Virus record (IMG/VR): IMGVR_UViG_3300023265_000002
Coordinates: 1 to 55,553 of that record
Strand: one strand, 5' to 3'
From: a virus
Taxonomy: Duplodnaviria > Caudoviricetes
DNA: 55,553 nt
The notes below the pieces were generated by a model that worked only from the letters and a program-made list of their open reading frames with translations, had not been told where the DNA came from and searched no databases. The position numbers and the translations under genes were made by a program. Shown here piece by piece: positions 1-55,553 of the stretch (position 1 is its first letter; the number at the start of each line of letters is the position of its first letter).

Positions 1-127
1 CCCGGTCATGGAACACCCCGCGCCAGCGCGCAGGAGTGCGGTCGTTCAAGCAGGACGCCTCCGGGTTGAACTCGGGTAACCGAGTTCACGAGGTGGGGAA
101 ATCCGGGTATCGAATCCCGGTCGCACA
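1..127. repeat. 127-bp direct terminal repeat (copy 1); circular assembly overlap
   Basis: 1-127 is identical to 55427-55553; 127 nt is a common assembler k-mer length. Confidence 0.95.
36..127 (+). ncRNA. tRNA-like domain 1 (acceptor, D and T arms; anticodon arm replaced by a long GTAA-capped helix)
   Basis: GTGCGG/TCGCAC acceptor; CGTTC/GGACG D-like arm; CCGGG-TATCGAAT-CCCGG T-like arm; TGAACTCGG-GTAA-CCGAGTTCA helix. Confidence 0.6.
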
Positions 128-173
128 CGCAGTAGGTGAACGTGGCCCGTGAAGCCCTAGTAGCCGGCAAGCA

Positions 174-268
174 GGGCGACTGACATTGGACGTCGGCGCG
201 CTTAGTAGCGGGTAGTCACGCCCCCGCGAACCGCGCGCTGTTGCGGGGTTCGAGCCCCTGCTCGCTCG
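174..268 (+). ncRNA. tRNA-like domain 2 (no anticodon loop)
   Basis: GGGCGA/TCGCTC acceptor; TGAC-ATTGGAC-GTCG D arm with GG; GCGGGG-TTCGAGC-CCCTGC T arm; GCGCGC/GCGCGC extended central helix. Confidence 0.6.
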
Positions 269-623
269 CTGGTCGCAGACGATCGCGACCACGGAATCCA
301 TAACCTGCCACGTCAAGCGGGGGGCCGAGCACCGAAGGGCGCTCGCATCGAACCGCTAGGTGCAGGGGCGGATGGTTTGGGAACCGCTGGGTTGGGCCTG
401 ACGCAGATGGCCAGCGGCAGCACCGGGGGACGGAGTTGGCCCGGTGCACGGTGTGGCTTCGCCGTCAGCCTGTTCGCGGGCTCGCCGCGTTAGGTCACAC
501 CAGCTCGGCCGCCCGCCAAGCAGCGAGGGCCCTTGAGGCTCATCAAGCAACGGGGGCGGCCGAGCACCACAGGTTCCCCGCCCGCCAGCGGGACGACCTG
601 CCGCTGCATCGGCTGGTCGAGCA

Positions 624-656
624 GGGCCCCCTCGTTCGCTGCGACCGAGGGGGCCC
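624..656 (+). terminator. GC-rich hairpin terminator
   Basis: GGGCCCCCTCG...CGAGGGGGCCC. Confidence 0.7.
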
Positions 657-662
657 AACTAT

Positions 663-692
663 TTGACACCCCCCACGGTGGGGGGTTAAGGT
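663..692 (+). promoter_or_regulatory. Palindrome-spacer promoter/operator, leaderless
   Basis: TTGACA-CCCCCCACGGTGGGGGGT-TAAGGT, ATG 6 nt downstream. Confidence 0.85.
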
Positions 693-698
693 GAGCGC

Positions 699-947
699 AT
701 GACGAACGCAGACGACTTCCCCACCTTCTCCGGCGACCTGACCGAGGAGTACGCGCTCGCGCTGCTCATCGACCCGAACGGCCCGCAGGTCTACGCCGCG
801 GCCCGCGCAGCGCTCGCCCGTCCGGTGACCTACGCCGCCCCGCGCCAGTCCACCCGCCCCGCGGCCTCCCCGGTCGGCGGCCTCCGCTTCACCGGCATGA
901 CGCACGACGGCCTGGCCTGCTACTCCGGCCCGGTCGTGGGAATCTGA
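699..947 (+). CDS. hypothetical protein (leaderless, MTN start)
   Basis: ORF with GC3-biased codons directly after the promoter. Confidence 0.8.
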   Translation: MTNADDFPTFSGDLTEEYALALLIDPNGPQVYAAARAALARPVTYAAPRQSTRPAASPVGGLRFTGMTHDGLACYSGPVVGI

Positions 948-1126
948 TGTTCACCCCGCGAGCAGGCGCTGACCTGCCTTACGTGATGATCGCCGACGAC
1001 GGCAGCGAGTGGGTCAACCACAACGACCCGGACCAGACGGTCGACTTGATCGGCGGCGACCCGGAAGACACGTCGACCCTGGGCATCCTCGAGGCGCACG
1101 GCTACCTGTTCCGGAACGCGTCGTGA
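947..1126 (+). CDS. hypothetical protein (59 aa, not in ORF track)
   Basis: TGATG overlap with the upstream gene; MFTPRAGADLPYVMIADDGSEW... Confidence 0.7.
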   Translation: MFTPRAGADLPYVMIADDGSEWVNHNDPDQTVDLIGGDPEDTSTLGILEAHGYLFRNAS

Positions 1127-1329
1127 CCAGCTCGCCGGTCGTCCGGCACTTCCCGCTGCGCGACGGCGGGACCGACATGACCGTGACGCTGCACGGGGAC
1201 GGCACGGTCTGGGTGGGGGACTCATGGGACAACTTGGTCCAGCTCGAGGGGGACCGCCTGCACGCGCTGGCGGACGCGCTGCTCGCGGTGCACGTGTTCC
1301 GCGGGCGTCAAGCGGGCACGAAGCGGTGA
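1123..1329 (+). CDS. hypothetical protein
   Basis: GTGA overlap; typical codon usage. Confidence 0.7.
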   Translation: MTSSPVVRHFPLRDGGTDMTVTLHGDGTVWVGDSWDNLVQLEGDRLHALADALLAVHVFRGRQAGTKR

Positions 1330-1433
1330 GGGAGTTCCTCAAGGCCGTGGCCGTCGTCTGTGCCGCGGTGACCTGTGCGCTGGTGGTGGGTGTCGCGCTG
1401 CTCGTGATCCTGCTGCAGCTCCGATGGATCTAG
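1326..1433 (+). CDS. small membrane protein
   Basis: GTGA overlap; single hydrophobic helix. Confidence 0.6.
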   Translation: MREFLKAVAVVCAAVTCALVVGVALLVILLQLRWI

Positions 1434-1447
1434 CGGTCCGGTGCGCC

Positions 1448-1888
1448 GTGCGGGTGACCCGCTTCCTGCACGCGCTGCTGTACGGCGTCGGCCTGACGAT
1501 GATGTTCGCGCGGCTGTGGGCGCAGGTGGCGGCCTCGCGGTACTGGCTTCCCGAGTGGCACGCGCCCGTCATGGTGGCGTTCTGCTCGGTCGTGCTGGTG
1601 GCGTGCCTGGCCTACGCCAGTTGCGTACCCCCCACGATGGGGGGTACAGTCCGCGGTAGCAAGACACCCGCAACCCAGGAGGCACCCCGTGGACACGCTC
1701 GTCGGCTGGCTCATGATCGGCGGAACACTCTGGCTGTCGTGGCCCGGCTTCACTACCGGACGCCAGCGCGTCGCGCTCGTCGCCCTGGTGCTGCTCGTCC
1801 CGCTCGTCTCCTGGGTGTGGACCATTACGCGGGGCGTTCGCGCACGTCGCGCACAAGCCGCAGACCGGCGGCTCGCCCAGCTCCGTGA
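1448..1888 (+). CDS. membrane protein (2 TM); 3' end runs through the next promoter cassette
   Basis: Hydrophobic N-terminus with good codon usage; C-terminus overlaps the operator and the next gene. Confidence 0.45.
   Translation: MRVTRFLHALLYGVGLTMMFARLWAQVAASRYWLPEWHAPVMVAFCSVVLVACLAYASCVPPTMGGTVRGSKTPATQEAPRGHARRLAHDRRNTLAVVARLHYRTPARRARRPGAARPARLLGVDHYAGRSRTSRTSRRPAARPAP
1621..1650 (+). promoter_or_regulatory. Palindrome-spacer promoter/operator
   Basis: TTGCGT-ACCCCCCACGATGGGGGG-TACAGT. Confidence 0.8.
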
Positions 1889-2054
1889 GCAGTCCGTGCA
1901 GCGAGCGCGGGACATCACCTACTGGCGCGAGCAGCGCGCCGTCGCCATCACCCTCGGCGCAGCGCGAGACCAGGCCGTCGCCGAGGACGTGCTCGACGCG
2001 CTCGGCGCAACCTACCGTCAACCCAGTAGCCCTACCCCCCATCATGGGTGGTAG
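1689..2054 (+). CDS. membrane protein
   Basis: RBS AGGAGG, GTG start, two TM segments. Confidence 0.8.
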   Translation: MDTLVGWLMIGGTLWLSWPGFTTGRQRVALVALVLLVPLVSWVWTITRGVRARRAQAADRRLAQLREQSVQRARDITYWREQRAVAITLGAARDQAVAEDVLDALGATYRQPSSPTPHHGW

Positions 2055-2057
2055 GGT
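2030..2057 (+). promoter_or_regulatory. Degenerate palindrome operator/promoter
   Basis: CCCTACCCCCCATCATGGGTGGTAGGGT; -10 TAGGGT, weak -35. Confidence 0.55.
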
Positions 2058-2081
2058 GTCGCTACCCCGAAAGGACCCGAC

Positions 2082-2186
2082 GTGTTGCAGCACGCAGCCC
2101 CGAGGAAGGGCTGCTTCGGCTCCATCGCGACCGCCCTCGCCGCCGTCCTCGTGACGTTCGGCCTCATCCGGAAGGCACTCCGGTGA
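2082..2186 (+). CDS. small membrane protein (34 aa, not in ORF track)
   Basis: RBS GAAAGGA, GTG; MLQHAAPRKGCFGSIATALAAVLVTFGLIRKALR; stop overlaps the next start. Confidence 0.6.
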   Translation: MLQHAAPRKGCFGSIATALAAVLVTFGLIRKALR

Positions 2187-2368
2187 CCACCAAACCGATC
2201 AAGCGCAGCACCGTTGCGGAGCCGCTCGCCGTGCTCGTGCTGCTGGGCGGGCTCAGCGCCTCGCTCATCCTGTCCGGCTGGCTTCCGCTGTGGGGCAGCG
2301 TCGCCGTCGCGAGCTTCCCGCTGGCGCTGGCCGTCGCCGGGTTCCGCACCGTGGCGCGTGTCCGGTGA
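2183..2368 (+). CDS. small membrane protein
   Basis: GTGA overlap; two hydrophobic helices. Confidence 0.7.
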   Translation: MTTKPIKRSTVAEPLAVLVLLGGLSASLILSGWLPLWGSVAVASFPLALAVAGFRTVARVR

Positions 2369-3321
2369 GCATCCACGACAAGATCCTCCGCGCGCTCGAC
2401 GTGCTGACGTTCCTCTTCCTGGCCTTCCTGATGGTCACGGGCGCTCGCCGCCTGTGGATCGAGGACGGCCCGATCAGCCTGTTCGTGCTGCTCGTCGTGT
2501 CCGTGGTGCTGTACCTGCTGGCGGACTACACCGTCCTGCAGTACCGGCGCTGGCAGCACGGCCGGAGCCGCGACCGGTGCGAGCACGAGCGCGCGCTGCA
2601 GGAGGCGCTCTACCTGCTCGAGTGCCACATCGACACCGACCTCGGCGAGTGCCGCGTCGACCTGTTCGGCGAGTGCTCCGCGCACTGGCCGAGGGACGCG
2701 CACGGCAACTGCGCCTACCCGCAGGCGAAAGCCCTGCTCGACCGATACCCCGTGGAGGCCACGCCCGATGTCCAATCCGCCGACTCCCCCGAACGACCCG
2801 CCCCCGCCGGACCTGATGGACAAGGTCCAGAAGCGCCTGCGCGAGGAGCTGGACAAGCCGAAGCCGCCGAAGCGGTAGAGCGCAAGTTCGTCCGCTGGTC
2901 GGGGACGCTCGGCATGGTGGAGCAGCCCAGCGTCGACCGGCGCAAGCTGGTGCGTCCGGAGATGTTCCTCGGCTACCGCGAAACCCCTCTGCCGATCACG
3001 GTGCGCGACAGCGAGGGGATGACGCAGGTCGGCGGCACCATCCTGGGTGTCGGCCTCCTCGAGGAGCACATCGTCGCGCACGGGGTGCTGCGCGTGGACT
3101 ACCTGACCGAGCACTGCCCGGAACTCCTCGAGCGCCTACTGCGCGGCGAGGCCGCCGCGGTCGGCCTCGAGGTGACGGCGGTCGACGGCGACTACACCTA
3201 CGGCGACGACGCGAGCCTGACGTTCCACACGTGGACCATCCGCGGTGCGCTGCTCGGCGTGGACAAGGCCGCATGGCCGGAGGCACAGATCCGACTCGAT
3301 GCAGAGGAGATCCGTTCATGA
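2365..3321 (+). CDS. membrane-anchored protein with C-terminal prohead-protease-like domain
   Basis: 2 TM at the N-terminus; C-terminal motifs resemble the N-domain of 16449-18860. Confidence 0.7.
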   Translation: MSIHDKILRALDVLTFLFLAFLMVTGARRLWIEDGPISLFVLLVVSVVLYLLADYTVLQYRRWQHGRSRDRCEHERALQEALYLLECHIDTDLGECRVDLFGECSAHWPRDAHGNCAYPQAKALLDRYPVEATPDVQSADSPERPAPAGPDGQGPEAPARGAGQAEAAEAVERKFVRWSGTLGMVEQPSVDRRKLVRPEMFLGYRETPLPITVRDSEGMTQVGGTILGVGLLEEHIVAHGVLRVDYLTEHCPELLERLLRGEAAAVGLEVTAVDGDYTYGDDASLTFHTWTIRGALLGVDKAAWPEAQIRLDAEEIRS

Positions 3322-5660: not shown

Positions 5661-5689
5661 TTGACACCCCCCATCATGGGGGGTAAGGT
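5661..5689 (+). promoter_or_regulatory. Palindrome-spacer promoter/operator, leaderless
   Basis: TTGACA-CCCCCCATCATGGGGGG-TAAGGT; ATG at 5697. Confidence 0.85.
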
Positions 5690-8004: not shown

Positions 8005-8033
8005 TTGACACCCCCCACCGTGGGGGGTACGGT
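8005..8033 (+). promoter_or_regulatory. Palindrome-spacer promoter/operator, leaderless
   Basis: TTGACA-CCCCCCACCGTGGGGGG-TACGGT; ATG at 8041. Confidence 0.85.
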
Positions 8034-9814: not shown

Positions 9815-9844
9815 TTGACACCCCCCACCGTGGGGGGTTACTCT
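9815..9844 (+). promoter_or_regulatory. Palindrome-spacer promoter/operator, leaderless
   Basis: TTGACA-CCCCCCACCGTGGGGGGT-TACTCT; ATG at 9851. Confidence 0.85.
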
Positions 9845-11491: not shown

Positions 11492-11521
11492 TTGACACCC
11501 CCCACGGTGGGGGGTTAAGCT
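11492..11521 (+). promoter_or_regulatory. Palindrome-spacer promoter/operator, leaderless
   Basis: TTGACA-CCCCCCACGGTGGGGGGT-TAAGCT; ATG at 11528. Confidence 0.85.
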
Positions 11522-11864: not shown

Positions 11865-11893
11865 TTGACACCCCCCACCGTGGGGGGTACGCT
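11865..11893 (+). promoter_or_regulatory. Palindrome-spacer promoter/operator, leaderless
   Basis: TTGACA-CCCCCCACCGTGGGGGG-TACGCT; ATG at 11900. Confidence 0.85.
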
Positions 11894-13251: not shown

Positions 13252-13577
13252 ACCTCAAATGGACCCGCGACGCGCTCACCGTCGCCGTGACGGCGGCCGC
13301 GGCCTTCCGGCTCACCCGTCTGTGGCTGCGCGACAGCCTGCCCGGAGTGGTCCACGCCCGCGAGGCCGCCGTCCGCGCGCTCGAGGAGCGCGCCCCCGAC
13401 GGCGAGGAGCACCCGCTGCTGCCGCTCACCTACTGCGCCTGGTGCGCTGGCTTCTGGATCTCGGCCGCCGTGGTCGCCGTCGCCAGCACTCCTGAGCTGG
13501 CTCCCCTGTGGAGGCCGCTGTCCACCGTGCTCGCCGTGAGCGCCGTGGTCGGTGTGGCATCCGCGCACGACGAATAG
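13248..13577 (+). CDS. DUF1360-like membrane protein
   Basis: AFRLTRLW.RD and CAWCAGFW motifs; usual position before the portal. Confidence 0.75.
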   Translation: MNLKWTRDALTVAVTAAAAFRLTRLWLRDSLPGVVHAREAAVRALEERAPDGEEHPLLPLTYCAWCAGFWISAAVVAVASTPELAPLWRPLSTVLAVSAVVGVASAHDE

Positions 13578-13587
13578 GAGCGACGAC

Positions 13588-16452
13588 GTGCCCGTGACCG
13601 AACGGGGCCGAGTAGCCGCCCAGGCCTTCCGCCAGGCGGCTACCGCGGCCGCCCCCCCGCCCAGGGAGCCTGCAGCCGCGGCCTTCGCCGCGCGCCCAGG
13701 TGAGCCACGGCGCACGGCTCCGAAGGTGATGCGGGCGTCCGGGGCCCGCATCGACAGCAGCAACCCGGACGCCGTGCGCTCGCTGATCGCGGGCAGGCGC
13801 AGCCAGCAGTGGCAGGCGCTGGCCTGGGGCTACCGGGACATGATCGGCGAACTCCGCTACGGCCTGCAGTACCGGGCGCGTGCGATCAGCCGCGTGCGGT
13901 TCTTCGTCGCGCAGATCGTCGGCGACGACGACGAGCCCATCCCGCTGTCCCTGCGCAACGACGAGGACGCCGAGAAGCGGGCCCGCATCACCCTGCCGCC
14001 CGCGCTCTGCCAGGCCGCCGAGGAGGAACTCGCCCGCCTGCCGCTGGACGCGGGTTACCAGTTTCTCGGAGTCTGGTCGGAGAACTTCGACGTCGCGGGC
14101 GAGTGCTACCTGCACGGGTTCTACGACGAGTGGACCGGTGAGGAGCAGTGGAAGATCCGCTCGGTCGACGAGGTCGAGTTCGGCACCGACGGCCGGACCG
14201 TGCACCTGATCGACGAGACCGTGCCCGGTGGAATCGGCCGGCGGATCGACCTGTCCGACGAGGGCGGCGAGGAGCTGTACCGGCTGTGGGTGCCGCACCC
14301 GCGACGCAGTCACCTCGCCGACTCGGCGCTGCACGCGATGATCGGCACGATGGAGGACATCTGCCTCATCGGCCGCGAGATGCGCGCAGTGATGCGGTCC
14401 CGGATCATGGCCAACGGCGTGATCTTGATGCCCGATGGCATGACGATGATGCGCAACGTGCGCGAGGACGCGGACGGCGACGAGGAGGACTCGCCGTTCA
14501 TGGCCGAGTTCACCGAAGCGATCAACGCGCCGATCGCGAACGAGGGCGACCCCGGCGGCACGGTGCCCGTGGTGCTGACCGGCAGCATCGAGGACATTCA
14601 GGCGTGGCGTCACGAGCGCCTCGAGCGCGAGGACTCGGAGGAGCTGAACGACAAGCTCGCCGCGTGTCTCGGCCGCCTGGCCGCTGGGATGGACATCCCC
14701 CCGGAGATCCTCAAGGGGATGGGGGACGCGAACCACTGGACCGCGTGGCAGATCGACGCGTCAACCGCGCGCCACCACATCGAGCCCGGCGTCCGGCTCA
14801 TGGCGGACAGCCTGACCGGGGCGCTGCTGCGCGCGGCTCTGCTCAAGCGCGGTTTCCCCATCGACCAGGTGCGGCAGGTCCGGACCTGGTACGACCTCGG
14901 CACCCTGACCGAGAACCCGAACCGGCGGCAGGACGCGCTCGACGCACGCCGCGAGGGCGCGATCGGCAACGCCTCGTTCCGGCGCGCGCTCGGCTTCAAC
15001 GACGGCGACGCGCCGACGCCGCAGGAGGTCGTCGAGATGGTCGCCCTCAAGGCCGGTTTCGATCAGGCCACGGCGACCGCGCTGCTGCGCTACCTGGTGG
15101 CCAACGACCCGGACCAGCCGTTCGAGTTCCCCGCGGCCGCCGAGCAGGGGGCCCCCGCTCCGGCGCTGCCCGCGGGCACTCCGCCGCGCGGTCCGGCCGG
15201 TCCGGCGGATGGGCCCGGCACGGTGCCGAGCACGGCCCCACCTGCCATCGCGGCAAGTGCTCATGAGAGCGCTCTCATGAGGGTCACTGCACCTCAAGTG
15301 CCCTACCTCGGTTTGTCCGGACAGGCTTTCGCGACCGTCCCAAGTGGACGCCAGCATCAGGCCGACGAGCAGTACCGCATCGCGCTCGACGAGTCCCGAC
15401 GCCTCATGGAGGTAGACCGCACCCTGCGCGACACCCTCCTCGCCGCGTGCGACGCGGCCATGACCCGCGCGCTCGAGGTCGCCGGGGCCCGCCTGCGCGG
15501 CAAGGCGACCGCCGACGCCACCCTGCACGCCGAGCTGCGCGGCATGAGCGTGCTCGTCCTCGGCCGTCACGTCGGCCGCGAGCGCGCCCTCGCCCTCAAC
15601 GCTGACGACGACCACCTGCTGCGCGAGGCCTTCGCCCAGCTCGGCACCCTGTTCACGAAGTGGGTGCTCGCCGCGATCGAGAACGTCGTCGAGCGCGTGC
15701 TGCAGCTCCTCGGCCTCGACGCCGAGTCGCGCGCCGGACGGGCCGCGGCGAAGCGGATGCGCGACGACATGGGCAGCAGGGTCGACGACGGCTGGTCGCG
15801 GCTGCACGACGGCCTGCGCGACCGGGCGTCGAAGCTGCTCTTCGAGGGCGAGGACGACGAGGAGTTGCCCGGCGAGATTCCCCCCGGCGCGGTCCCGCCG
15901 TACCTGCTGCGCACCGCGCTCGCCATCGTCGGCGGCCTCCCGGAGACCTCCGGCGGCCTCGACGAGTACGGCCGGTCGGTCACCGGGGAGCCGGTCGGCG
16001 GCCTCGCCAACGGCGACACGGTCCGGCGCGAGATGGAGCAGCACGGCGCGGTCGAGCTGGGCTACCTGTGGGTGTACGGCATCACCCTGGACCCGCGGAA
16101 GTTCGACCCTCACTGGGACCTCGAGGGCGCGAAGTTCGCCGACTGGTCCGACCCGAAGCTCGAGACGGCGGGCGTGTACGGCGGCAAGTTCGCGTGGGTC
16201 GGCACCCACTTCCGGCCCGGCGATCACCGCGGCTGCATGTGCGACTACGTCCCCGCCTACGCGGTCCCCGCCTACGCCGAGCAGGTGCGGGAGCGCCTGG
16301 CGGTTCCCACTCGCCAAATGGCGGACCTGATCAAGCTCGCCGAGAGCGACGACGCGGCAGGCCGCACCGGCACCACGGCGCAGATCATGCGCGACCAGCA
16401 CGAGCAGATTCAGACCCTGCAGGCACGATTCCTCGGAGGTAAGCGGCCATGA
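13588..16452 (+). CDS. portal protein fused to MuF-like minor head domain
   Basis: WQALAWGY..IGEL.Y, W.PHPRR...ADS and D.NHW.AW motifs of actinophage portals; C-terminal PGDHRGCMC. Confidence 0.85.
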   Translation: MPVTERGRVAAQAFRQAATAAAPPPREPAAAAFAARPGEPRRTAPKVMRASGARIDSSNPDAVRSLIAGRRSQQWQALAWGYRDMIGELRYGLQYRARAISRVRFFVAQIVGDDDEPIPLSLRNDEDAEKRARITLPPALCQAAEEELARLPLDAGYQFLGVWSENFDVAGECYLHGFYDEWTGEEQWKIRSVDEVEFGTDGRTVHLIDETVPGGIGRRIDLSDEGGEELYRLWVPHPRRSHLADSALHAMIGTMEDICLIGREMRAVMRSRIMANGVILMPDGMTMMRNVREDADGDEEDSPFMAEFTEAINAPIANEGDPGGTVPVVLTGSIEDIQAWRHERLEREDSEELNDKLAACLGRLAAGMDIPPEILKGMGDANHWTAWQIDASTARHHIEPGVRLMADSLTGALLRAALLKRGFPIDQVRQVRTWYDLGTLTENPNRRQDALDARREGAIGNASFRRALGFNDGDAPTPQEVVEMVALKAGFDQATATALLRYLVANDPDQPFEFPAAAEQGAPAPALPAGTPPRGPAGPADGPGTVPSTAPPAIAASAHESALMRVTAPQVPYLGLSGQAFATVPSGRQHQADEQYRIALDESRRLMEVDRTLRDTLLAACDAAMTRALEVAGARLRGKATADATLHAELRGMSVLVLGRHVGRERALALNADDDHLLREAFAQLGTLFTKWVLAAIENVVERVLQLLGLDAESRAGRAAAKRMRDDMGSRVDDGWSRLHDGLRDRASKLLFEGEDDEELPGEIPPGAVPPYLLRTALAIVGGLPETSGGLDEYGRSVTGEPVGGLANGDTVRREMEQHGAVELGYLWVYGITLDPRKFDPHWDLEGAKFADWSDPKLETAGVYGGKFAWVGTHFRPGDHRGCMCDYVPAYAVPAYAEQVRERLAVPTRQMADLIKLAESDDAAGRTGTTAQIMRDQHEQIQTLQARFLGGKRP
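15260..15281. promoter_or_regulatory. perfect 22-bp LacI-family-operator-like palindrome inside the portal gene
   Basis: CTCATGAGAGCGCTCTCATGAG. Confidence 0.4.
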
Positions 16453-19187: not shown

Positions 19188-19216
19188 TTGACACCCCCCA
19201 CGATGGGGGGTACTGT
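19188..19216 (+). promoter_or_regulatory. Palindrome-spacer promoter/operator
   Basis: TTGACA-CCCCCCACGATGGGGGG-TACTGT. Confidence 0.85.
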
Positions 19217-42211: not shown

Positions 42212-42241
42212 ACACTACCCCCCCACCGTGGGGGGTGTCAA
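42212..42241 (-). promoter_or_regulatory. Palindrome-spacer promoter/operator, leaderless
   Basis: TTGACA-CCCCCCACGGTGGGGGGG-TAGTGT on the minus strand. Confidence 0.85.
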
Positions 42242-48982: not shown

Positions 48983-49011
48983 TTGCACCCCCTAACGGTT
49001 GGGGGTACGGT
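48983..49011 (+). promoter_or_regulatory. variant palindrome-spacer promoter, leaderless
   Basis: TTGCAC-CCCCTAACGGTTGGGGG-TACGGT; ATG at 49018. Confidence 0.7.
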
Positions 49012-52056: not shown

Positions 52057-53856
52057 GTGACGTCCGCGCTGTTCTCGCGCCTCGCGGACCGGTTCGAACA
52101 ACGGGTGAACCCGAAGCCGAACGAGACCCTGCTCCGCTTCCCCACCCCCGGCGAGCTGGCGCGCTTCGTCCGCAACGACACGGTTCAGACCCCGATGCTG
52201 GACAAGTTCGACGAGGCCATCGTCCTCGCCGACAAGGGCGAGCAGCGACGTTGGATCATCAACTGCCCCCCGCAGGAGGGCAAGAGCACCCGCGCGCAGG
52301 CGGCCGCCCTGTGGCTACTGCTGCGCGACCCGACCAGGCGCATCGCGTTCGCCTCCTACGAGCAGTCCCTCGCCCGCGTGTCCGGCCTCGCCGTGCGCCA
52401 GTACCTCGAGACGCACGGCTCCGGCTACCTCGGCGCTCGCCGCGACGCGGACCGGAAGGACGTCCTCGGCCTCGCGCTGGACCCGGTCCGCGGCGAGGCG
52501 ACGAAGTGGGCGCTCGCGAAGACCCCTACCCTCCCGCTGCCCGGAGGCGTGATCAGCGTCGGTGTGGGCTCCGGCTTCACCGGCCGTCCGGCGGACGTCC
52601 TGTTCATCGACGACCCGATCAAGGACGCGCAGGCCGCGGACTCGCCGAAGATCCGGCAGAACGTGATCGACTGGTACCTCGCCGTCGCGTCGACCCGCCT
52701 GTCCTCCGACGCGATCGTGATCGTGGTCCAGACCAGGTGGCACGAGCAGGATCTCGCGGGGTGGCTCGAGGCCGAGGACGACCCGGACGAGCCCGCCTGG
52801 CGGAAGGTGGCCGTCGCCGCGCAGGCGATGAAGCCCGACCCGGAGGCGCAGCCCCCGATCGGCGAGGACCCCCTCGGCCGCAAGCCCGGCGAGTTCATGA
52901 TCTCGGCTCGAGGCCGGACCGCCGAGGACTGGGAGAAGATCAAGAAAGCCCAGGGTCGCGGCACCTCGCGCTGGTGGTTCGCGATGTACCAGCAGCGCCC
53001 CGCCCCGCCCGCGGGCGGCGTGTTCCAGCGCGAGTGGTTCCGGCGCGACCGGCTCACCGAGCGGCCGCCGATGAAGCGCACCCTCGTGATGGTGGACCCT
53101 GCGGACAACGAGGGCGACGGCGACGAGGCGGGCATCATCGTCGGCGGCGTGTCGACCGACGGCCGGTATGCCGTGCTCGCCGACTGGTCCGGGCACTACA
53201 CGATCGACCAGTGGTTCCGGCGCGCCTACCTCGCGTGCTTCGAGTTCGACGCCTCCGCCGTGTGCTGGGAGGCCAGCCTCTCCGGCCTTCGTCGCTCGGC
53301 GGCCTCGACGTGGAAGCGCGTCCGCGAGGAGGCGCGCGTCCTGGTCGCCGCGTGGAAGCACGTGCACGGGGAAGACGCCGTGTTCCCGGAGCGCGACCAG
53401 CACCCGCGTGCCGCCGTGCTGGTGGTCGCCTGCGAGATGCTCGCCCGCGAGGAGGACGACAAGCAGGACGCGATGGCGCAGCGGCAGAAACTGGTCCAGC
53501 TCTGGCCGTACGTGCGCGCCATCCGCTCCGCCCCGCGCACCGGGCCCCCGCTCAAGTCGGTCACGGCGAAGGGCAGCAAGACGCAGCGCGCCGAGTTCAT
53601 CGCCCCGCTGTACGACAACCGCGAGGTGTCCCACGTCGGGCACCTCGCCCAGCTCGAACACGAGATGTCCACATGGCAGGTCACCCAGAAGTCGCCCAAC
53701 CGGATGGACGCGAACGTCCACCTGCTCACGGAGCTGTCGCGCTCCGACGGCGGCTCGCTGCAGCGGGCGTCCGGCCCGGACCTGCAGCGTCACGGGGGCG
53801 TGCGCCAGGCGCAGCAGGTGCCCACGACCAGCGTCGGTAGCAGGGGGTGGCGATGA
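52057..53856 (+). CDS. terminase large subunit
   Basis: PPQEGKS Walker A; LFIDDP.K Walker B; TRWH..DL and YQQ.P motifs; VDPA and SPNRMDA nuclease motifs. Confidence 0.95.
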   Translation: MTSALFSRLADRFEQRVNPKPNETLLRFPTPGELARFVRNDTVQTPMLDKFDEAIVLADKGEQRRWIINCPPQEGKSTRAQAAALWLLLRDPTRRIAFASYEQSLARVSGLAVRQYLETHGSGYLGARRDADRKDVLGLALDPVRGEATKWALAKTPTLPLPGGVISVGVGSGFTGRPADVLFIDDPIKDAQAADSPKIRQNVIDWYLAVASTRLSSDAIVIVVQTRWHEQDLAGWLEAEDDPDEPAWRKVAVAAQAMKPDPEAQPPIGEDPLGRKPGEFMISARGRTAEDWEKIKKAQGRGTSRWWFAMYQQRPAPPAGGVFQREWFRRDRLTERPPMKRTLVMVDPADNEGDGDEAGIIVGGVSTDGRYAVLADWSGHYTIDQWFRRAYLACFEFDASAVCWEASLSGLRRSAASTWKRVREEARVLVAAWKHVHGEDAVFPERDQHPRAAVLVVACEMLAREEDDKQDAMAQRQKLVQLWPYVRAIRSAPRTGPPLKSVTAKGSKTQRAEFIAPLYDNREVSHVGHLAQLEHEMSTWQVTQKSPNRMDANVHLLTELSRSDGGSLQRASGPDLQRHGGVRQAQQVPTTSVGSRGWR

Positions 53857-54663: not shown

Positions 54664-54693
54664 TTGACACCCCCCAATGATGGGGGGTACGGT
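54664..54693 (+). promoter_or_regulatory. Palindrome-spacer promoter/operator
   Basis: TTGACA-CCCCCCAATGATGGGGGG-TACGGT. Confidence 0.8.
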
Positions 54694-55332: not shown

Positions 55333-55361
55333 TTGCACCCCCCCACGGGGGCGGGTATGGT
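55333..55361 (+). promoter_or_regulatory. variant palindrome-spacer promoter driving the large ncRNA
   Basis: TTGCAC-CCCCCCACGGGGGCGGG-TATGGT. Confidence 0.7.
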
Positions 55362-55366
55362 CGGCG

Positions 55367-55553
55367 ATGTTGCAGCGCGGCACGGGGCATGGGGTCGGAG
55401 GAGAACTCCGGACGAAGGGCGCTCGTCCCGGTCATGGAACACCCCGCGCCAGCGCGCAGGAGTGCGGTCGTTCAAGCAGGACGCCTCCGGGTTGAACTCG
55501 GGTAACCGAGTTCACGAGGTGGGGAAATCCGGGTATCGAATCCCGGTCGCACA
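55367..55553 (+). ncRNA. 5' part of the large structured ncRNA (continues through the overlap to about 656)
   Basis: TGCAGCG (55371-55377) complements CGCTGCA (602-608); hairpins CGGAG/CTCCG and GACGA/TCGTC. Confidence 0.65.
55427..55553. repeat. 127-bp direct terminal repeat (copy 2)
   Basis: Identical to 1-127. Confidence 0.95.

Follow-up and report, generated by a model that had tools for sequence, protein, structure and literature searches.

Tandem tRNA-like modules without an anticodon arm, predicted in a non-coding stretch of an uncultured soil phage

The window analyzed here, the complete IMG/VR virus record IMGVR_UViG_3300023265_000002 (55,553 base pairs [bp], 70% G+C), is the genome of an uncultured soil phage that encodes siphovirus-type genes (large terminase, portal, tape measure and tail proteins) and has its closest cultured relatives among the actinophages, at no more than 35% identity of the large terminase (TerL). 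The genome includes a non-coding stretch of approximately 0.8 kb, from 55325 through the junction of the record's ends to 698, in which no open reading frame (ORF) has the signature of G+C content at third codon positions (GC3) that is common to every accepted gene of the genome. Two modules that resemble tRNAs, each with a hairpin in place of the anticodon arm, lie in tandem on its + strand: TL1 (36-127) and TL2 (174-268), separated by a spacer (128-173) that tolerates insertions and deletions. Megablast and blastn searches with positions 1-3000 and 1-700 found zero matches among cultured phages (50,697 genomes), and ARAGORN calls no real tRNA genes in this phage.

The first 127 nucleotides (nt) of the window are repeated exactly at its end (1-127 = 55427-55553); TL1 is printed twice (36-127 and 55462-55553), its 3' end coinciding with the end of the repeat. 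This end repeat was overlooked in the original prediction, an earlier note on this DNA, which left its account of the context incomplete while every structural detail that it described was borne out. The junction is internal, and the sequence continuous, in two other assemblies: the relative L009 and a 55,592-nt contig from sequencing run X2. Because both run through the junction in mid-record, the most likely explanation of the repeat is that the assembly of a circular or permuted genome overlaps at its ends, and TL1 would thus be single copy. A common assembler word length is 127.

Folded alone, both modules have a four-way cloverleaf as their minimum-energy structure, in which a 6-bp acceptor-like stem is stacked on a T-like arm, a D-like arm is present, and a long hairpin occupies the position of the anticodon arm. 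The original prediction had claimed an acceptor-like stem, D-like arm and T arm in 36-127 and in 174-268, with the anticodon arm replaced by a 9-bp GTAA-capped hairpin in the first and by a nested GCGCGC/GCGGG helix in the second, and no encoded CCA in either, all of which are present. TL1 consists of an acceptor-like stem (36-41 with 121-126), a D-like arm (43-57, loop AAGCA with a single G), a long, irregular middle arm (58-98, 41 nt) that includes the 9-bp hairpin (67-75/80-88) and its GUAA cap, and a T-like arm (103-120) of 5 bp with an 8-nt loop, UAUCGAAU (UAUCRAAU); it ends with A127, followed by CGC. TL2 consists of an acceptor stem (174-179 with 262-267), a D arm (182-194) of 3 bp with the loop AUUGGAC, in which GG is present, a middle arm (196-238, 43 nt) with GCGCGC/GCGCGC outside, GCGGG/CCCGC inside and a 10-nt loop, and a T arm (243/244-260/261) with a canonical 7-nt loop, UUCGAGC; it ends with G268, followed by CUG. 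Besides the GG of the D loop and the UUCGA of the T loop, TL2 has a U8-like mark. Its acceptor/T stack of 6+6 bp is close to that of a tRNA, while that of TL1 is 6+5 bp, without canonical loops. The description of both modules as mimics of the tRNA elbow fits TL2, with its GG D loop and UUCGA T loop; for TL1, an elbow is presumed from the modeled fold. The stability of TL1 is unusual for its composition (z = -3.1; one of 200 shuffles folds as well). Dimerization of T loops through a kissing contact of the palindromic UCGA was considered and rejected, as L009 and several other elements have UCAA.

L009 (55,701 bp, 99% identical in TerL) is 93% identical to the window over the non-coding stretch, which is contiguous there (L009:4051-4898). 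It was the only close relative among 14 loci collected on the basis of TerL; two others, L010 and L011 (53% TerL identity), have coding sequence downstream of TerL, without a module. The window and L009 differ by 12 substitutions within the two modules. Six of these fall in stems (T46C, A69G, G175A, A179G, C236T and G245A), and all six keep a standard pair, including the four that fall in TL2; the others change the GUAA cap to GCAA, which is still a GNRA loop, replace one purine by another in the T-like loop of TL1 (G112A), or lie in internal loops. The six pair-keeping changes are only modest support for the folds, because approximately half of random stem transitions would keep pairing by our own estimate. 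The spacer in L009 has one inserted base and one substitution. Leaf-litter and soil metagenome runs hold further variants, with spacer insertions behind 143 and 154; among the variant differences listed, insertions and deletions are absent from TL1, paired in TL2, and single insertions in the spacer.

More distant homologs were identified in metagenome contigs, among which a scan for the T arm and acceptor strand of TL1 matched five stretches (the L009 contig, L038, L039, L040 and L041). TL1 homologs are clear in L039 (66% G+C) and L040 (60% G+C) and weak in L038 (57% G+C); L041 shares only the T arm. A covariance model built from TL1 (R1) matches L039 (E = 4.7e-12), L040 (E = 1.5e-8) and a second element of L040 (E = 6e-4), and one built from TL2 (R2) matches a second element of L039 (L039:1599-1667, - strand, E = 6.7e-4) as well as the TL1-type elements (E = 0.003-0.005). 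The best match of R1 in 79 unrelated viral loci (607,861 bases), searched as controls from the 95 IMG/VR stretches that a D-arm pattern scan had matched, has E = 0.14, and a genuine tRNA-Met in L014 is matched by neither R1 nor R2. The modules of L039, L040 and L038 fold alone into the same cloverleaf. Tandem pairs are found on the sense strand of a non-coding stretch in the window and L009, in L039 and in L040, and weakly in L038; all modules are on the strand of the flanking genes, and T-arm-like hairpins occur on that strand only. L039, L040, L038 and the window have no protein in common at E < 1e-4 in the stretches compared, and outside the modules the three contigs share no sequence with the window.

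Alignment of five sequences (A5) has 98.3% of 118 cells paired, a figure raised by fitting of the rows to the models, with changes on both sides at eight of 30 pairs, versus 33-48% paired in slid controls. In an alignment of both classes (A7), fitted in the same way, pairing holds in 97.3% of 112 cells and both sides have changed at 11 of 26 pairs; none of 500 shuffles reaches the covariation score. The T arm and 3' acceptor strand are the most constant part: the window matches L040 without a difference over 24 nt, and L039 likewise matches L040 over 29 nt. The last base is A, with C after it, in TL1-type elements (L040 has a full ACCA) and G, with C after it, in TL2-type elements. The middle arm, on the other hand, ranges from 15 to 43 nt overall: in the window it has 41 nt (TL1) and 43 nt (TL2), whereas the arms of L039 and L040 have 15-18 nt. 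On this comparative reading, the arm is a hairpin of variable length and not what remains of an anticodon arm. The distance between modules is 2 nt in L038, and L040 has an 85-nt spacer; the second module of L040 has a G+C-rich acceptor stem followed by a run of U, which gives it the look of a terminator. Shown at the level of sequence is a cloverleaf that lacks an anticodon, is conserved and covaries, and usually comes in tandem; it lies on the sense strand of non-coding DNA, and a phage promoter motif precedes it. Because the same architecture recurs in unrelated contigs and its helices covary, the modules appear to be neither chance folds nor decaying tRNAs, and the original prediction of tRNA-shaped RNAs with a replaced anticodon arm is supported and widened to a small family.

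Two further observations concern these distant elements. The second module of L038 (L038:1451-1512, - strand; reverse-complement 565-626) combines a 5-bp arm and a 7-nt loop (CUUGUUA) with a T-like hairpin of only 3 bp and a 4-nt loop; judged by its sequence, it may stand halfway from a tRNA to the anticodon-less design. In L040, a 3'-5' exonuclease of the RNase T/oligoribonuclease type (L040:173-691, - strand; PF00929, E = 1.9e-14) starts 24 nt after the second module. Comparison of ten ORFs that flank the modules (in the window, L039 and L040) with Pfam and PHROGs gave only this RNase T-type exonuclease of L040 and a weak match to RusA.

The modules do not belong to the tRNA class, the tRNA-like domain of transfer-messenger RNA (tmRNA) or the YrlA class. 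ARAGORN makes no tRNA call on them by default or with the options -i and -ps, and no tmRNA call even at 80% thresholds; Rfam has no match on them at gathering thresholds, its tRNA, tmRNA and Y-RNA families have none at E up to 10 on positions 1-800, and RF00005 (tRNA) has none at E up to 10 in the complete record. The original prediction had anticipated a pseudogene or no call from such gene finders and covariance models, and no call is what ARAGORN (default and -ps) and the Rfam tRNA, tmRNA and Y-RNA models returned. Instead of the 5-bp anticodon stem and 7-nt loop of a tRNA, TL1 has a 4-nt loop (GUAA) and TL2 a 10-nt loop, and the loops at this position in homologs are of 4-8 nt; a 5-bp stem with a 7-nt anticodon loop is found in no homolog, with the possible exception of the degenerate L038 module, and ARAGORN calls none of them. 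The G3.U70 wobble by which tmRNA is alanylated is replaced by a G-C third pair in TL1, TL2, all five rows of A5, and A7, and where tmRNA has neither a D stem nor a third arm, the modules have both a paired D-like arm and a third arm. The order of elements (5' acceptor strand, D arm, middle arm, T arm, 3' acceptor strand) is not the permuted order of YrlA, and the TROVE domain of Ro60 (PF05731), which would be expected nearby, has no match in the complete 55.5-kb record, the control genomes being positive. The form does correspond to that of mascRNA, a cloverleaf without a functional anticodon inside a longer, presumably transcribed, non-coding RNA.

At 80% thresholds, ARAGORN labels 34-130 and 195-267 as tRNA-Ser. 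The same setting yields three further calls in the same 700 nt (424-514, 500-594 and 575-657) that seem spurious, and for this reason the tRNA-Ser labels are given no weight and are dismissed for both modules. They might nevertheless be cited, along with the U8-like mark, GG D loop and UUCGA T loop that TL2 keeps, in favor of decaying tRNA pseudogenes in which insertions have destroyed the anticodon arms. This is very improbable: the default and -ps settings of ARAGORN and the Rfam tRNA model are silent, the arms are closed by short, stable loops (of the GNRA type in the window), substitutions keep pairing, and unrelated contigs share the anticodon-less design, with compensatory changes. The original prediction was to be refuted if its homologs were ordinary tRNAs in decay through insertion; the opposite is seen. 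Conservation and covariation extend over the acceptor, D-like and T-like parts. Probably, the modules are made on purpose as tRNA look-alikes.

Since the T arm and 3' acceptor strand, which are best conserved, are also what tRNA-targeting integrases duplicate, the elements might instead act as DNA, as a phage attachment site (attP) core that copies the 3' half of a host tRNA, or as a packaging or origin site; one element of a wider group described below, in L033, lies approximately 830 nt from a tyrosine integrase gene. However, neither tyrosine nor serine recombinases (PF00589 and PF00239) have any match in the phage, a full cloverleaf is present, including the covarying 5' strand, and a search for the 20-nt T-arm/acceptor motif in 185,579 prokaryote species (one genome each) found three stretches, none with a T stem or cloverleaf, which are judged from their sequences to be chance matches. 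A DNA-level role is scarcely credible.

The transcript to which the modules would belong can be outlined from the phage's own signals. Upstream of the non-coding stretch is a promoter-like motif (55333-55361, + strand) composed of TTGCAC, a 17-nt spacer with a palindrome of C and G runs, and TATGGT. The genome-wide consensus of this motif is TTGACA, a spacer with the palindrome CCCCCCA...TGGGGGG, and TAnGGT; the pattern has 17 matches (approximately 12 sites) in the genome versus 0.05 expected from shuffles, and the sites are always oriented with the local genes (663-691, 5661-5689, 8005-8033, 9815-9843, 11492-11520, 11865-11893, 19188-19216, 42213-42241 on the - strand, 48983-49011, 54664-54692, and 55333-55361). 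The palindrome could serve one regulator as its operator, or form a hairpin that doubles as the terminator of the upstream gene. A generic sigma-70 promoter scan makes no call at 55333-55361 or at the other end of the stretch, and the assignment is made because the motif is the phage's own and is repeated. A + strand RNA of approximately 0.72 kb is predicted from this sequence to begin there, with a presumed leader (55362-55426, continuing over the circular junction at 1-35) ahead of TL1, the spacer and TL2. Downstream of the modules follow a structured non-coding RNA (269-623; the fold of 269-662 has z = -4.5) and a G+C-rich, terminator-like hairpin (624-656, inverted repeat I2, 16 nt, 94% complementary) followed by AACTATTT; its U tract is weak, and a generic terminator scan does not call it. 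The next copy of the promoter motif (663-691) serves the gene that starts at 699.

Several features of the 3' domain were noted in their own right. Positions 281-568 (288 nt) are identical in L009 although the flanks are only 89-95% identical. An internal repeat, GGCCGAGCACC, is found at 319-338 and 554-573, and both copies are able to pair with 503-516. In a soil variant, 420-573 is swapped for 118 other letters. R1, R2 and Rfam all lack a match in 269-623, and an 18-mer from the conserved 3' domain matched two stretches, one of which is L009 and the other (L037) a chance match.

If the modules were purely cis-acting cutting marks or end caps for RNase P and RNase Z, the real product would be another piece, such as an RNA of approximately 390 nt (269-660), and the excised tRNA-like pieces, as with mascRNA and MALAT1, would serve no purpose themselves. 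The position of the modules between a leader and this strongly structured 3' domain, together with the identity of the domain in L009 despite the 5-11% difference of its flanks, fits such an arrangement. A conserved partner RNA is nonetheless lacking, since L039, L040 and L038 share nothing outside the modules, and part of the 3' domain is replaced in the soil variant. In L038 only 2 nt separate the modules, and in L040, with its 85-nt spacer, the second module runs directly into a run of U. Generic processing signals would have no need of an invariant T arm and acceptor strand of 24-29 nt. On this evidence, a purely cis-acting role is unlikely. The spacer itself was considered as the real product and rejected as a general explanation, as it tolerates insertions and deletions and is just 2 nt in L038.

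A structural competitor to the cloverleaves is found in the same transcript. Positions 15-31 of the leader are complementary to 233-249 on the 3' side of TL2 (inverted repeat I1, 17 nt, 88% complementary), and when the first 359 nt of the modeled transcript are folded with a partition function, this pairing has a probability of approximately 0.95 in the window, with the helices of TL2 at approximately 0 and the acceptor of TL1 at 0.01. In L009 the pairing falls to at most 0.36, yet the cloverleaf stems reach just 0.06-0.28. These predictions all count against cloverleaf modules in the cell. If the cloverleaves did not exist there, the long-range pairing, which is also used by the global minimum-energy fold, would make some other structured RNA, either a riboregulator or a replication primer. 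The phage lacks an integrase, and PMC7157519 describes an RNA-based prophage origin in cluster A mycobacteriophages, with a non-coding RNA adjoining a parABS cassette, as a means open to integrase-less actinophages. However, neither ParA nor ParB was found in this phage (zero matches to ParB_N and AAA_31), the cloverleaf recurs amid unrelated flanking sequences, and energy-based folds of RNA with 70% G+C are unreliable. In addition, L009 has two changes in the leader (C16G and C19A) and one in TL2 (G245A) that break the long-range duplex, while G245A keeps the T stem of TL2 by converting G.U to A-U. Because these changes weaken the duplex and preserve the T stem, the cloverleaf is favored; an RNA organized around the leader pairing is decidedly improbable, and the complementarity may be either a switch or a folding artifact of the model.

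The reading preferred here, tentatively, is that TL1 and TL2 are selected RNA modules of a rare and undescribed phage family that are excised as tRNA mimics and are themselves the product. According to this reading, the RNA of approximately 0.72 kb from the motif at 55333-55361 would carry both modules, each of which would fold into an L shape with an acceptor/T stack of 11-12 bp. The host RNase P would cut at G36 and G174, and RNase Z or exonucleases would trim after A127 and G268, with CCA addition a possibility. Two stable RNAs of tRNA size (approximately 92 and 95 nt) would be released, the cutting of the long transcript being a by-product. Unable to decode, they might then tie up a factor, of the host or of the phage, to which the acceptor/T-arm half of tRNA binds. 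The original prediction had suggested processing signals or decoys as possible functions. Because the conserved part appears to be read as sequence, not by shape alone, the released modules are most likely the product, and because enzymes that read shape have no need of 24-29 identical nucleotides, the modules are probably more than generic signals for RNase P and RNase Z. A role as product is ranked above a role as cutting mark because the partner sequences are not conserved, the spacer is as short as 2 nt, and the T arm and acceptor strand are invariant.

Several points, besides the competing leader pairing, weigh against this reading. TL2 is no more stable than its shuffles (z = -0.47; 58 of 200 are as good), and the case against chance therefore rests on comparison. 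The comparative set in turn is small, consisting of three or four lineages, with the window and L009 being close kin; A5 and A7 were fitted to the models and include two closely related rows, which inflates the counts of paired cells toward structure; and the stem substitutions of variants from runs X3 and X5 do not count as independent events, because they are the same as in L009. The elbow of TL1 is uncertain, given its 8-nt T-like loop (UAUCRAAU) and the lack of GG in its D-like loop; with these features, and with acceptor stems of 6 bp instead of 7, RNase P or TruB-type enzymes might not recognize the modules. No RNA-related enzyme was found among the 25 ORFs of the window scanned against Pfam or PHROGs, and the complete record has no match to a Ro/TROVE protein or to a CCA-adding enzyme of the PolyA_pol type. 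None of the 17 sequencing runs listed with this DNA is an RNA run, so that the proposed transcription, cleavage sites and addition of CCA are predictions.

The 8-nt T-like loop is found in a wider circle of elements. The 18-nt T arm of TL1 occurs in 14 IMG/VR stretches, of which one is the relative L009, five are near-identical contigs in which no closing stem was found, four are left unassigned, and four (L030, L032, L033 and L036; 32-49% G+C) possess what is here called group B. Group-B elements (L030:8772-8861 on the - strand, L032:7854-7991, L033:10868-11019, L036:10968-11097 and L036:12990-13142) consist of a 6-bp closing stem in which five of six pairs covary, an invariant UGGC(G/A)GAAG, a variable middle of 40-110 nt, and an invariant T-like arm with the same 8-nt loop as TL1. 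They receive no ARAGORN or Rfam call and were not found in the 50,697 genomes of cultured phages. In L036, as in L039, an element with a canonical T loop lies approximately 165 nt upstream of an element with the 8-nt loop. Also in this circle, ARAGORN calls a tRNA with a four-base anticodon (atca) at L032:6435-6512, in a viral contig of 36% G+C, 1.4 kb upstream of the group-B element.

As a lead from sequence likeness, and not as proof of common descent, the 8-nt T-like arm may mark a broader family. That family could be defined by a 6-bp closing stem that covaries and, stacked on it, a near-invariant T-like arm with a 5-bp stem and an 8-nt loop (UAUCRAAY). A larger claim can be built on this definition, namely that TL1 and TL2 form the high-G+C branch of an undescribed, wider superfamily of tRNA mimics in phages of 32% to 71% G+C. 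The tandem modules, once excised, would work as decoys or sponges that engage, in a sequence-specific way, a host factor able to read the acceptor/T-arm half of tRNA; taken as a whole, this claim is rather improbable. Such a factor might be an abortive-infection toxin of the MenT/AbiEii type that modifies tRNA 3' ends, a candidate put forward as speculation. If true, the modules would constitute a counter-defense that anticodon nucleases cannot disable.

The rest of the genome provides little further context for the modules. Ten of the larger ORFs of the window, compared with Pfam and PHROGs, include a DnaC-like loader, a GH25 lysin and a Bro-N domain protein, and nothing RNA-related. Across the contig junction, approximately 15 kb separate the large terminase gene (52057-53856) from the portal gene (13552-16452), which is not the usual layout of a siphovirus, and the interval between them holds the non-coding stretch along with many small ORFs.

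A conserved family of tandem, non-decoding tRNA look-alikes has apparently not been described so far. The TL family was not found in Rfam 15 or in the 50,697 cultured phage genomes, and no description of tandem, anticodon-less phage tRNA mimics was found in the Creative Commons part of PubMed Central and bioRxiv. Among the nearest known RNAs is that of mycobacteriophage DS6A (tmID 11587), which according to PMC4131195 carries little more than the tRNA-like domain of tmRNA and is thought to titrate SmpB, a host protein that binds tRNA mimics. Both are small RNAs of actinophages or their relatives that keep the acceptor/T-arm half and have no anticodon, but TL1 and TL2 differ from it in having G3-C70 instead of G3.U70, a paired D-like arm and a real third arm, and in being arranged in tandem inside a longer RNA. 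They are also set apart from DS6A and from tmRNA in general by their failure to match the tmRNA search of ARAGORN and the tmRNA models of Rfam.

YrlA and YrlB are likewise non-coding RNAs with a tRNA-like domain. As described in PMC4201824, Mycobacterium smegmatis processes two such RNAs from one precursor, its YrlA is cut by RNase P and receives CCA, and homologs have been reported in phages; the domain of YrlA is permuted (T arm, closed "acceptor" stem-loop, D arm), the two ends of the RNA lie in the Ro-binding helix, and the RNA is encoded beside Ro60. TL1 and TL2 differ from YrlA in their normal tRNA order, in the lack of a TROVE match in the phage, and in the lack of any match to Rfam families of the Y-RNA type.

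In eukaryotes, MALAT1 and NEAT1 carry at their 3' ends the tRNA-like cloverleaves mascRNA and menRNA, which have no working anticodon and serve as cutting marks for RNase P and RNase Z. TL1 and TL2 resemble mascRNA and menRNA in being anticodon-less cloverleaves within a long non-coding transcript, but those are eukaryotic, are single modules at a 3' end, and have no sequence relation to TL1 and TL2, the processing of which is predicted only. Among phages, the RNAC and RNAD species of T4 also fold in a tRNA-like manner. They are two small RNAs from the tRNA region of T4, with unknown roles (PMC3014915 and PMC9697503). They share with the modules the status of stable, phage-encoded small RNAs without a known function; unlike the modules, they have real tRNAs beside them, of which this phage has none.

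Another parallel, in overall design, is an artificial one. In the tRNA scaffolds of RNA engineering, a foreign hairpin replaces the anticodon arm, and the resulting RNA is processed and stabilized in bacteria. TL1 and TL2 likewise keep the acceptor, D and T parts and have an arbitrary hairpin at the position of the anticodon arm. They differ from the scaffolds in that the latter are artificial, and in that the inserts of TL-type elements are as short as 15-18 nt in some homologs; for this reason, the inserted hairpin is unlikely to be the functional part. If the reading preferred here is true, the modules would be a natural version of the tRNA scaffold. Real tRNAs and, in one case, a stripped tmRNA are known as cargo of phages. 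Should the modules prove to be excised and to bind a factor of the host, they would represent a new kind of phage RNA effector, for which the near-invariant 8-nt T-like loop provides a simple handle, either in a covariance model or as an 18-mer, for finding more members and for pulling down a partner.

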